Shown in pieces: positions 10,373 to 15,788 of a stretch of DNA of 40,218 nt (the stretch's first letter is position 1; each line of letters opens with the position of its first letter). A program made the translations under genes and the position numbers. This stretch comes from Escherichia phage CLB_P1. The DNA is taken from sequence record KC109329.1, one strand, 5' to 3'. The notes below the pieces were generated by a model, which saw only the letters and a program-made list of their open reading frames with translations, was not told where the DNA came from and searched no databases.

Positions 10373-10588
10373 ATGATTAAACTTATTGAATTTCTTGGTC
10401 GTCTGGTGGTGCGTGGTTATCGTCGTGCTGCGGTACTGGAGCGAAAGGTAGAAAAGAAGACTGCTGACGGTGCGGCTGATGCTGCTGCTCTGGCTGACAA
10501 GCTGACCATCGCGTCACTGGAAGCGGGCATGAAGGCACGTCAAGCTGACACCAAAGCTGACCAGTTGGCCCAGTTCTTCAAAGCCTAA
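10373..10588 (+). CDS. Hypothetical protein (71 aa)
   Basis: RBS AAGGAG before ATG; Ala/Lys-rich predicted helical product. Confidence 0.55.
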   Translation: MIKLIEFLGRLVVRGYRRAAVLERKVEKKTADGAADAAALADKLTIASLEAGMKARQADTKADQLAQFFKA

Positions 10589-12567: not shown

Positions 12568-12614
12568 TCTAGACTCAAGGTCATTCACATTGAGTGGCCT
12601 TTATGATTAGACTA
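12568..12614 (+). promoter_or_regulatory. Conserved stem-loop, candidate RNase III processing site (R4.7-like)
   Basis: AGACTCAAGGTCAT-loop-GTGGCCTTTATGATTA; same stem as at 5483 and 36254 with a different loop. Confidence 0.4.
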
Positions 12615-12629
12615 AACGGAGGATTAACC

Positions 12630-13031
12630 ATGTTTGATTGCATTGAGTGGACCGGGTGTCGAGATAGTTTCGGCTACGGTATGCGAAAGGTCAACGGGAA
12701 GGTCCGTAGACTGCATCTGATAGCCTTCGAGGAGGCGAATGGTCCGATACCAGAGGGAATGGTCGTGAGGCACAAATGCGACAACCCAGCGTGCTACAAT
12801 CCAGAACACTTGGAGCTGGGGACAAGGGCTGAGAACAATCACGATAGAGACATTAGAGGTCGAACCGCTAAAGGCGTGCGACATGGAAGCTCTAAGCTTA
12901 CACCTGAAATAGTACAAGAGGCCAAGGTGCTTTACGCAGGAGGTGGCTGGACTCACCGCTCCTTAGGTAAGAAGTATGGAGTGGGTCACCGCACACTGGC
13001 TAGAGCAATTGGAGGAGAAACATGGACTTAA
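12630..13031 (+). CDS. HNH homing endonuclease (free-standing, between primase/helicase and DNA polymerase)
   Basis: NGPIPEGMVVRHKCDNPACYNPEHLELGTRAENNHD motif; GGAGGA RBS 7 nt before ATG at 12630. Confidence 0.8.
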   Translation: MFDCIEWTGCRDSFGYGMRKVNGKVRRLHLIAFEEANGPIPEGMVVRHKCDNPACYNPEHLELGTRAENNHDRDIRGRTAKGVRHGSSKLTPEIVQEAKVLYAGGGWTHRSLGKKYGVGHRTLARAIGGETWT

Positions 13032-15034
13032 GTAACGTATATGGGTCTGACATCGAGACCAATGGTCTACTTGATACAGTCTCCCAGTTTCACTGTGGGG
13101 TCCTGATTAACGCCGAGTCGAATGAGACCCTTAAGTATGGGGTAGCTCCGATGGTCGGTATCGTCGGTGGCTTCAAAGAGTATGTTCATAAAGTGGAAGA
13201 GATTGCCGCATCTCCTGATGGTATGCTGGTATTCCATAACGGTATCAACTATGACGTCCCGGCTATCGACAAGCTGAAGCGTCTGTACTTTGGTAAACGA
13301 TTTAACTTCCCGAAACACAAGATGATTGATACCTTGGTGCTGGGCCGCTTGATGTATCCAAACATTAAGTTCTCAGACATGGGCGCGGTGAAAGCTGGTC
13401 GTCTGCCACCTAAGATGATGGGGCGCCAGTCTCTTGAGGCTTGGGGCTATCGTCTAGGTGAGATGAAGGGTGAGTACAAACACGATTACGTTGCCAAATG
13501 CAAGGCTGAAGGTATCGAATATAAGGCTGGGGACGAATGGTTGTTCCCGTCTCAGGAGATGCTGGACTATAACGTTCAAGACGTTGTGGTCACACTGGCG
13601 TTGTTCAAGAAGTTCCTGACTGACAAGTATTACTTCCAGTCTGAACAGTTCGCTTTCGACCAGATTTATGCGTTGCGTCTGGAACATGATGCTGCGTGGA
13701 CCTGTGCGAAGATGGAACGTAACGGCTATCCGATGAACACCGAGATGGTCGAAGGCTTATATCGTGAACTCACCGTCAAACGTGCAGAGCTGCTGGACAA
13801 GCTGCGTTCGACTTTCGGTAGCTGGTATGCACCGAAGGGAGGCAAGGAGTTCTTCAAGCACCCACGTACAGGCAAGGACCTTCCTAAGTATCCGCGAGTC
13901 GTGTATCCTAAGGTCGGTGGCATCTTTAAGAAGCCGAAGAACAAAGCTCAACGATTAGGTCTTGAGCCTTGCGAGTTCGACTCACGAGACACGATGGAAG
14001 GAGCGCCATTCACGCCAATAACTTACGTTGAGTTTAATCCGGGAAGCGGAGACCACTTAGCGAAAGTCCTGATGGAGCGTGGCTGGGAACCTGTGGACTT
14101 CACTGACACCGGGAAGCCTGTAGTCGATGACGAGACGTTAGAACACGTTAAGTTACCAGACGAAGAGGCTCAGGCTTGCGTAGAGCTGGTCCGTGAGTAT
14201 CTGGTAGTCCAGAAGCGCATCGGTCAGGCGGCTGAAGGTAAGAACGCATGGTTGAAACTTGTAGGTCCAGACGGACGTATGCACGGTTCAATCAACCCAT
14301 GTGGTGCAGTAACCGGACGTGCGACCCATAGTACACCAAACATGGCTCAGGTCCCGGCTAACGGTGCCCCATACGGTGAGACTTGCCGTGGTGCTTTCGG
14401 TGCAGCGTGGAACAAGAAGGACGGCAAGCCAGACCCTTGGATTCAAGTAGGTGTGGATGCCTCAGGTCTTGAGCTTCGTTGTCTGGGGAACCGAGCGGCT
14501 CCGTTTGATGGTGGTGACTATGCGAAGACTGTAGTCGAAGGTGACATCCACTGGGCAAACGCAGTCAACGCTGGACTAGCACCTAACGTCCCACGCGACA
14601 AGTCTAGCCATGACCATGATGCTTTCCGTAATAACGCTAAGACGTTCATCTATGCGTTCCTGTATGGTGCAGGGGCCGCTAAGATTGGACTGATAGTCGG
14701 AGGTGGTAAGAAGGAGGGTTCAGCTCTCATGAAGAAATTCATTGAGGGTACACCAGCTATCAAGGACCTCAGGGAAGCTGTACAGAACACGCTCATCTCC
14801 GAGTCCAAATGGGTGGACGGTGAGAACATCGTGAAGTGGAAACGTCGCTGGCTGAAAGGTCTGGATGGTAGACGCATTCACATCCGGTCGCCACACTCAG
14901 CACTTAACGCTCTACTTCAGGGTGACGGTGCGGTTGTCTGTAAACACTGGATTGTTGAGACTGAACGTATGCTTGAAGAGGCCGGGTATGTCCACGGCTG
15001 GGAAGGAGACTTTGCGTACATGGCATGGGTGCAT
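13022..15034 (+). CDS. DNA polymerase (T7 gene 5 homolog), exon 1 (codons 1-671; a TAA stop follows in the intron)
   Basis: DIETNGLLD exonuclease motif, YNVQDVVVT, PRTGK.LPKYPR, KVGGIFKKPKNKAQR, GRATH, DASGLELRC, NAKTFIYAFLYGAG, GDFAYMAWVH as in T7 gp5. Confidence 0.95.
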
Positions 15035-15632
15035 TAACATCATGGTGCACATTAAATCTGGTGAACTCGGTGAACTCCTAATGGGACAATACCGAGCCAA
15101 GCCATAGGGAGGATGTATGAGAGGCAAGAAGTTAATTCTTGAGGCCACTGAGACTGGCTGCATAATCCCTACGTCACATAAATTGAATCAGGATGGATAC
15201 TTCCGAAAGAGGACTAACGGTGTCCTTGAGATGTATCATAGAACTGTATGGATTAAAGCTAATGGTCCAATACCTGAAGGTTTCGAAGTAGACCACAAGT
15301 GTCGTAATAGAGCTTGTTGCAACGTCGAACATCTACAAGTATTATACCGGGACTCACACTTAGTCAAGACCAACAAAGAGCGATACGCTGCTAGGAAGCT
15401 AGAAGCACGAGACTACTGGGTAGAGACTGGGTGTACTGGAACGAAGTTAGCCGAAGTATTCAATGTGTCGTTCTCAGCCGCCTGTGGGTGGATTAGAGAG
15501 TGGAAGGCGTAGAGACTATCCGAAAGGAGTAGGGCCGTGGGTGAGATTCCCACGTAACCCGAAGCGCCAGACAGTCACCTCAAAGACTGATGATATAGTC
15601 CGACACTTCCAGTAATGGGAGAATACAGAAAG
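15035..15632 (+). mobile_element. Putative group I intron with embedded HNH homing endonuclease gene, interrupting the DNA polymerase gene
   Basis: Exon ends in U (15034); exon GUGCAU pairs with GUGCAC at 15045-15050 (U-G at the splice site); G at 15632; joining 15034 to 15633 restores the conserved polymerase C-terminus in frame. Confidence 0.65.
15117..15512 (+). CDS. HNH homing endonuclease encoded within the polymerase intervening sequence
   Basis: NGPIPEGFEVDHKCRNRACCNVEHL motif; RBS GGGAGG before ATG; lower GC than flanking sequence by eye. Confidence 0.85.
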   Translation: MRGKKLILEATETGCIIPTSHKLNQDGYFRKRTNGVLEMYHRTVWIKANGPIPEGFEVDHKCRNRACCNVEHLQVLYRDSHLVKTNKERYAARKLEARDYWVETGCTGTKLAEVFNVSFSAACGWIREWKA

Positions 15633-15788
15633 GATGAGTTACAGATTGCTTGTCGTACTCAAGAAATAGCAGAACGTACAGTAGAAATTGCTCAACTTGC
15701 TATGCGTAAGGTGGGTGAGTTCTATAACTTTAAATGTGTCCTTGATACCGAAGGTAAGATTGGACCAACGTGGAAGGAGTGTCACTAA
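15633..15788 (+). CDS. DNA polymerase exon 2 (C-terminal 51 aa: DELQIACRTQEIAE...FKCVLDTEGKIGPTWKECH)
   Basis: Colinear with T7 gp5 C-terminus (DEIQVGCRTEEIAQ...FRCLLDTEGKMGPNWAICH); an in-frame ATG at 15615 could alternatively give a separate 57-aa peptide. Confidence 0.7.
   Translation, partial: DELQIACRTQEIAERTVEIAQLAMRKVGEFYNFKCVLDTEGKIGPTWKECH

Follow-up and report, generated by a model that had tools for sequence, protein, structure and literature searches.

The DNA polymerase gene, gene 5, lies in two pieces on the plus strand of the window, by which we mean the whole 40,218-nucleotide stretch of Escherichia phage CLB_P1 DNA that was analysed (KC109329.1; CLBP1 in the following). The window phage is a K1F-like Kayfunavirus and close kin of coliphage K1F. 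Between the two pieces of the gene are 598 nt that carry a reading frame of their own, and the locus comprises the following features.

13022..15034, plus strand: gene 5 (DNA polymerase) exon 1; 671 codons, ending ...GDFAYMAWVH with the His codon CAU
15035..15632, plus strand: predicted group I intron, subgroup IA2, 598 nt; assigned from the exact indel against SH5, the RF00028 match, covariation and identity to the K1F copy
15107-15112, plus strand: Shine-Dalgarno-like GGGAGG, read from the sequence; directly 3' of the P6a 5' strand and four bases upstream of the ATG
15117..15512, plus strand: putative HNH homing-endonuclease ORF, 131 aa; HNH_3 (PF13392), in the P6a loop
15633..15788, plus strand: gene 5 exon 2; 51 codons (DELQIACRT...TWKECH) and a stop at 15786-15788

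The polymerase ORF 13022..15037 (671 aa) is closed by the TAA at 15035-15037, directly after ...FAYMAWVH, and from 15633 the same strand encodes DELQIACRTQEIAE...TWKECH. Joining 15034 to 15633 yields a polymerase of 722 aa. As determined by comparison with the T7 DNA polymerase chains 6n7w, 2ajq and 1skr (the last with the sequence of 1t7p), this product follows T7 gp5 in an ungapped, end-to-end 722-aa alignment that runs straight through the junction (E = 5e-272), where the joined product reads ...FAYMAWVHDELQ... and the T7 chain ...FAYMAWVHDEIQ.... The alignment places the interruption (MAWVH/DELQ; here and in the alleles below the slash marks the junction) in motif C, between T7 His653 and Asp654. 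We take His653 to be Pol I position 881, the His of motif C. In family A polymerases motif C comprises the residues HDE, the Asp is a catalytic metal ligand, and the residues aligned to T7 Asp654 and Glu655 are catalytic. Since the insertion separates the His from the Asp of this motif, the 671-aa product lacks the equivalents of Asp654 and Glu655, and a working gene 5 polymerase should require splicing. The G+C content falls from 51.6% in exon 1 and 50.1% in the window to 46.5% in the intron and 45.5% in its ORF.

The boundaries of the insert are defined to the base. Compared with the polymerase gene of Citrobacter phage SH5, which is uninterrupted and at this site reads ...GTC CAC/GAC GAA TTG CAG..., the window has exactly 598 additional nt, 15035..15632, and bases are neither missing nor repeated at the junction. 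The final base of exon 1 (15034) is U, intron bases 1-3 (15035-15037) are a UAA that stops exon-1 translation in frame, and the final intron base (15632) is G, the terminal guanosine or omega G, which precedes exon 2 in all aligned copies. An earlier note on this DNA, made from the letters alone, had described the stop after FAYMAWVH, the 598-nt gap with a continuation on the same strand, the colinearity of the joined exons with T7 gp5 and the G before the 3' junction; direct reading bears out the first and the last, and the comparisons with SH5 and with T7 establish the other two.

Nine annotated phage copies of the intron were assembled: the window, BUCT788, CHRF_10037, 13a, Aeromonas PT2, Vibrio Vp_R1, Aeromonas MQM1, E. 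coli SU7 and Edwardsiella DT115P1. They are 598-644 nt long, and all nine sit at the same H/DE junction, after CAU and before GAY GAR. The phages that carry them belong to the Autographiviridae (Kayfunavirus, Teseptimavirus, Aeromonas and Edwardsiella phages), the Grimontviridae (Vp_R1) and the Gordonclarkvirinae (SU7), with MQM1 unclassified. In IMG/VR, a scan with the core 18-mer GATGATATAGTCCGACAC gave at least 120 matches; among the matches listed, most were other IA2 introns in other genes and about a quarter had a GAYGAR exon context. Only nine distinct same-site copies were taken from them, the remainder yielding no census, and together with the nine annotated copies they form a set of 18. 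The His codon before the intron is CAU in 18 of 18 intron-containing alleles. Intron-less alleles read GTACAT/GATGAA in T7, ATACAC/GACGAA in T3 and GTCCAC/GACGAA in SH5, so that the His codon is CAC in SH5 and T3 and CAT in T7. The distribution of the element is patchy: at least 80% of the region is covered in 15 of 246 matching records, and a distant BLAST search with the intron matched 69 phage records, 43 of them holding most of it.

A secondary structure was derived by hand by comparing the homologous copies. The elements that it predicts are listed here in order along the intron; paired strands are separated by a slash.

15029-15036 / 15043-15050, plus strand: P1; exon GUGCAU and intron UA paired with the internal guide UGGUGCAC
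15038-15041 / 15633-15636, plus strand: P10; CAUC in the P1 loop with GAUG at the start of exon 2, by complementarity
15057..15105, plus strand: 5' half of the ribozyme core (P3 5' strand, P4, P5, P6 5' strand, P6a 5' strand)
15057-15063 / 15565-15571, plus strand: P3
15066-15072 / 15090-15096, plus strand: P4
15076-15079 / 15083-15086, plus strand: P5
15097-15098 / 15506-15507, plus strand: P6
15102-15105 / 15500-15503, plus strand: P6a, whose loop holds the ORF
15500..15632, plus strand: 3' half of the ribozyme core (P6a', P6', P7, P7.1, P7.2/P7.2a, P3', P8, P9, terminal G)
15514-15519 / 15595-15600, plus strand: P7
15520-15527, plus strand: P7.1, with a GAAA loop
15529-15531, plus strand: GUA linker joining P7.1 and P7.2
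15532-15560, plus strand: P7.2 and P7.2a
15572-15576 / 15585-15589 (15572-15589), plus strand: P8
15606-15611 / 15616-15621, plus strand: P9, with a GUAA loop
15632, plus strand: terminal G

By its sequence, 15035..15632 is a group I intron of subgroup IA2 with a complete predicted architecture. The core of P3-P4-P5-P6 and P7-P8-P9, with its P3/P7 pseudoknot, has every helix present and fully paired in the window. P2 is absent, and the spacing between P1 and P3 is only 6 nt. Within P1, for which the earlier note had proposed a U-G wobble at the 5' splice site, U15034.G15045 indeed marks that site and is U.G in 18 of 18 copies, and three pairs of P1 covary in the same set. The weakest helix is P10, with 4 bp, of which three of the four are conserved and the fourth is often unpaired (74% of cells paired). 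The signature of subgroup IA2 is a P7.1 and a P7.2 linked by G-U-A (PMC3428280). Both helices lie between P7 and P3' in the window and are joined by GUA, and P7.2a covaries.

To these helices we applied measures of covariation, with the alignments made on ORF-deleted constructs and the structure mapped onto them. Standard pairs occupy 97.3% of cells in the nine copies and 96.1% in the 18 copies, compared with 35-43% and 37-47%, respectively, in controls whose partners were slid by 1-3 columns, a contrast that is inflated, mainly in the share of cells paired, because the structure was derived from the same sequences. Changes on both sides occur in 26 of 64 pairs (60 cells) among the nine copies and in 28 of 64 pairs (139 cells) among the 18, and none of 500 shuffles reaches the observed value on any measure in either set. 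The group I signal is far beyond chance. Compensatory changes are present in P3, P4, P5, P6, P6a, P7.2a, P8 and P9; P3, for example, is UCUGGUG/CGCCAGA in the window, CUUUGUG/CGCAAAG in PT2 and CUCAUUG/CGGUGAG in Vp_R1. P7, complementary at 6 of 6 positions, and P7.1 are invariant among the copies, so that covariation is uninformative for these two helices.

A covariance-model search for the P3-P7 core, named in the earlier note as a check, led to the same element. The Rfam model RF00028 matches 15025-15622 over its full positions 1-253 (E = 3.4e-7, 35.7 bits). An Rfam scan of the window at the gathering threshold reported nothing, because 35.7 bits lies below the gathering score of 50 bits, which is a curation cut-off and not a biological property. 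The low score probably results from the missing P2 together with the ORF of about 400 nt, which has no counterpart in the model and is treated as an insertion. Two homologues exceed the gathering score, namely those of Aeromonas phage MQM1 (61 bits) and Salmonella phage Arash (58.9 bits); their introns occupy the same site or the same gene, and the Arash copy is ORF-less. Thermodynamic folding of the ORF-deleted intron recovered P1, P4, P5, P7.1, P7.2 and P9 (z = -2.2). The long-range or pseudoknotted helices P3, P6, P7 and P8 were not recovered in this minimum free energy fold, as is expected for the method. The group I reading of the earlier note is thus upheld by RF00028, by a covarying IA2 structure and by the near-identical annotated intron of K1F.

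The ORF in the P6a loop matches HNH_3 (PF13392) with E = 1e-15 and 57.4 bits against a cut-off of 24.8, and its translation contains the motif ...DHKCRNRACCNVEHL.... With the GGGAGG upstream and the low G+C content given above, this agrees with the description in the earlier note of an HNH endonuclease frame with its own ribosome-binding site. The frame is interwoven with the ribozyme: its final codons supply the strands P6a' (15500-15503) and P6' (15506-15507), and it ends at a UAG (15510-15512) in J6/7. The HNH ORF is intact in all copies, and the dN/dS values of 0.06-0.17 against diverged copies point to purifying selection, consistent with a functional protein. K1F-type ORFs share 75-77% protein identity with the T7-group copies. 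Upstream of gene 5, CLBP1 also carries a further HNH gene (12594-13031), which is free-standing; K1F is absent from the records that hold most of this region.

A scan with the phage promoter consensus AACTATCACTATAGGGA, as annotated in Ro45lw, located 12 sites across the window, of which the nearest good ones to the intron are at 10588 and 17498; it found none inside the intron. The intron and its ORF would hence be transcribed within the gene 5 message. The sequence CCATAGGGAGG upstream of the ORF was considered as an internal phage promoter and rejected, as the intron contains no consensus site and sigma-70-like matches are near chance.

On the basis of these data, we propose that a mobile IA2 group I intron interrupts gene 5 between the His and Asp codons of motif C and that splicing joins the exons, a reading to which we assign a probability of roughly 0.93. 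That CLBP1 splices at this site we infer from the group I mechanism and from its relatives in phages PhiI and W31. According to this model, gene 5 and the intron would be transcribed together from upstream phage promoters. In the folded RNA, free guanosine would attack the phosphodiester after U15034, which the U.G wobble would hold in P1; the freed 3'-OH of exon 1 would then attack after G15632, with P10 aligning exon 2, and exon ligation would produce the mRNA for the 722-aa polymerase. Ribosomes on unspliced RNA would halt at the UAA (15035-15037) and release the 671-aa product without the Asp654 and Glu655 equivalents. The HNH protein, translated from its own ribosome-binding site, may nick or cut the intron-less gene 5 of co-infecting relatives near the site, and repair would copy the intron in. 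Such homing would account for the patchy distribution, which together with the purifying selection on the ORF gives it indirect support.

A variant of this scheme, which we consider quite unlikely, is that splicing is incomplete or conditional and that gene 5 deliberately gives both the 722-aa polymerase and the 671-aa protein. If so, the shorter protein would, by the alignment to T7 gp5, retain the exonuclease region at its N-terminus and the greater part of the polymerase domain while lacking motif C. The UAA at intron bases 1-3, together with the ORF running through P6a' and P6', could then partition transcripts between polymerase and endonuclease: as the endonuclease reading frame crosses both strands, its translation should unfold the core.

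Very improbable in our estimate is a polymerase split without splicing, in which a free-standing endonuclease cassette divides gene 5 and polypeptides of 671 aa and 57 aa (from ATG 15615) assemble. Two CDS are indeed annotated in AM084414, NC_007636, Ro45lw and SU7, and ATG 15615 is in frame with exon 2, so that some records start a 57-aa 'gp5.4' there. However, no Shine-Dalgarno sequence can be read upstream of this ATG, which is buried in the P9 stem, and both features argue against independent translation of exon 2; the lack of a phage promoter site within the intron likewise speaks against its separate expression. Moreover, the break would fall between neighbouring active-site residues (T7 His653 and Asp654), the sequences on either side of the ORF build a complete, covarying group I core, and the U and G at the boundaries as well as the pairing of P1 and P10 with both exons would be left unexplained.

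We regard it as just as improbable that the intron has decayed, so that it splices inefficiently and reduces gene 5 to what is in effect a pseudogene, or that a helper or host polymerase is used. The Rfam score under the gathering value and the absence of P2, which is present in some relatives, could be read in this way. Yet P2-less copies are common to many isolated phages, including 13a, BUCT788 and Ro45lw, the core helices all pair fully and the exons are intact and conserved. Furthermore, the ribozyme segments are the same as in the copy of K1F, which is an isolated lytic phage. An intein or other protein-level insertion removed after translation, for which nothing speaks beyond the interruption of a conserved polymerase motif, is ruled out, as are frameshifting and bypass, by the in-frame UAA that forms the first codon of the insert and by its size, and the insert moreover has a conserved RNA structure and an independently started and translated ORF in which HNH is the only domain.

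With an intron that splices as the preferred reading, gene 5 should be annotated as join(13022..15034,15633..15788). Many related records, for example those of BUCT788, Ro45lw, NC_007636, SU7, DT115P1, PT2 and Vp_R1, either give a truncated 'DNA polymerase' and a short additional product, named 'DNA polymerase', 'gp5.4' or 'hypothetical protein', or do not show exon 2 at all. The practical value of the present analysis is therefore one of annotation, and the Kayfunavirus CLBP1 record OZ035730.1, which is 100% identical to the window, is unannotated. The scientific addition is small, given that mobile IA2 introns at exactly this polymerase site of the T7 group have been on record since 2004 and that the annotation of the nearly identical K1F copy dates from 2005.

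The element is thus already known, through an annotated copy in K1F and through relatives in PhiI and W31 that are reported to self-splice. The K1F intron is 99.3% identical over all 598 nt and shares the insertion site, the 131-aa HNH ORF and exon 2. Its ribozyme segments do not differ from those of the window; the substitutions (4 nucleotide, 2 amino-acid) are all in the ORF. The K1F record DQ111067 (Scholl and Merril 2005) joins both parts of the polymerase CDS and annotates a 'homing endonuclease' inside it. The K1F polymerase intron is called a 'putative' group I intron in PMC4925675, and we found no stronger account of splicing for the K1F copy. The intron of Teseptimavirus 13a is about 80% identical, and its record EU734174 joins the exons likewise.

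A free-standing counterpart of the intron ORF exists in T3. Gene 5.3 of this phage lies immediately downstream of an uninterrupted gene 5. Over 95 aa its product is 49% identical to that of the intron ORF, likewise an HNH_3 protein, and the two are homologues, but the T3 protein lacks the C-terminal ~37 aa, the part that overlaps P6a' and P6' in the intron. The T3 gene 5.3 endonuclease is presumably F-TslI of Bonocora and Shub 2009. The earlier note places a free-standing endonuclease in T7 as well as in T3. This holds for T3, where gp5.3 is the HNH protein, but not for T7, whose gene 5.3 occupies the same position and encodes an unrelated PD-(D/E)XK protein.

Group I introns with HNH genes are also present in the family A polymerase genes of SPO1 and SP82 (I-HmuI, I-HmuII), Bastille (I-BasI), Pf-WMP3 (I-PfoP3I) and phiL7. 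These introns are inserted at Pol I positions 674 and 676 (PMC3428280). Pf-WMP3 resembles the window in having an IA2 intron with the ORF in P6a and without P2 (PMC3428280).

The described features of the PhiI and W31 introns (AY769989, AY769990) are those to which we liken the window. In PMC3428280, which cites Bonocora and Shub 2004, both introns are stated to self-splice, to belong to subgroup IA2, to carry an HNH ORF in P6a and to be inserted at Pol I site 881. They encode I-TslI (Bonocora and Shub 2004, 2009, as cited in PMC3428280 and PMC8136825), and according to the latter the I-TslI of PhiI nicks its DNA target and has a core site of 9 bp. The window intron has in common with PhiI and W31 the IA2 subgroup, the HNH ORF in P6a and the insertion at the motif C His, and it is for these two phages that splicing and nicking activity have been shown.

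Gene 5 is accompanied by a second HNH_3 endonuclease gene besides the one carried within its intron:
12594-13031, + strand, free-standing HNH_3 endonuclease gene (145 aa), directly 5' of gene 5.
This upstream gene overlaps the gene 5 start codon (13022), and in the record of phage CR44b it is labelled 'predicted homing endonuclease'. Over a core of 52 amino acids its product shares 48% identity with the intron HNH protein, and gene 5 is therefore flanked or invaded here by two homing-type nucleases. Most of the region 12594-13031 is present in only 12 of 128 related records, and K1F is not one of those 12.

The string AACTATCACTATAGGGA, a phage RNA-polymerase promoter, matches the window 12 times at ≤3 mismatches, compared with 0.06 matches expected by chance, and all 12 lie on the + strand:
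2390, 5466, 7512, 8464, 10588, 12834, 17498, 20319, 21328, 26010, 33293 and 39458, + strand, promoter matches at ≤3 mismatches.
The match at 12834, which has 3 mismatches and is located within the upstream HNH ORF, may be a chance match.

Two small ORFs around the 3' half of the ribozyme and exon 2 are annotated as proteins in some K1F-type records:
15463-15615, + strand, '5.0 unknown', 50 aa.
15615-15788, + strand, 'gp5.4' or 'DNA polymerase', 57 aa.
The 50-aa ORF spans the P6'-P9 part of the ribozyme core, and the 57-aa ORF corresponds to exon 2 with six intron codons added upstream; both are probably annotation artefacts. BUCT788, Aeromonas phage PT2, Vibrio phage Vp_R1, E. coli phage SU7 and Edwardsiella phage DT115P1 carry the intron at the same site, the polymerase H|DE junction, but their annotated polymerase is truncated; these records list exon 2 as a small 'DNA polymerase' CDS of its own or leave it unannotated.

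In some same-site copies, namely those of Aeromonas phage MQM1, DT115P1 and the IMG/VR sequences L037 and L095, P1 and P3 are separated by a P2 hairpin; this hairpin is absent from the K1F and 13a types. The polymerase CDS of MQM1 is annotated in three pieces, so this gene holds a second intron upstream. An ORF-less relative of the gene 5 intron, about 270 nt long, is found in Salmonella phage Arash (OQ632216, about 1066-1320; RF00028, 58.9 bits). Its insertion site, in motif B of a family A polymerase (...AKSVTF|GLLYGA...), differs from that in the window. As the two polymerase halves are given as separate CDS, 'DNA polymerase nu' and 'DNA polymerase theta', the Arash element looks like an unannotated intron.

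The 18-mer GATGATATAGTCCGACAC, covering J8/7, the P7 3' strand and J7/9, is present in at least 120 viral contigs of IMG/VR (L013-L132). Among the matches listed, most are away from the polymerase H|DE site, so that GATGATATAGTCCGACAC is a string generic to the cores of IA2 introns in phages; it could provide a cheap probe for unannotated introns.

Downstream of gene 5, T7 gp5.3 (gene 5.3; 2184-2540 in the T7 sequence L133), annotated as a hypothetical protein, matches the PD-(D/E)XK endonuclease family PF11645 (E = 1e-10). It is unrelated to T3 gp5.3, an HNH protein that occupies the same slot.
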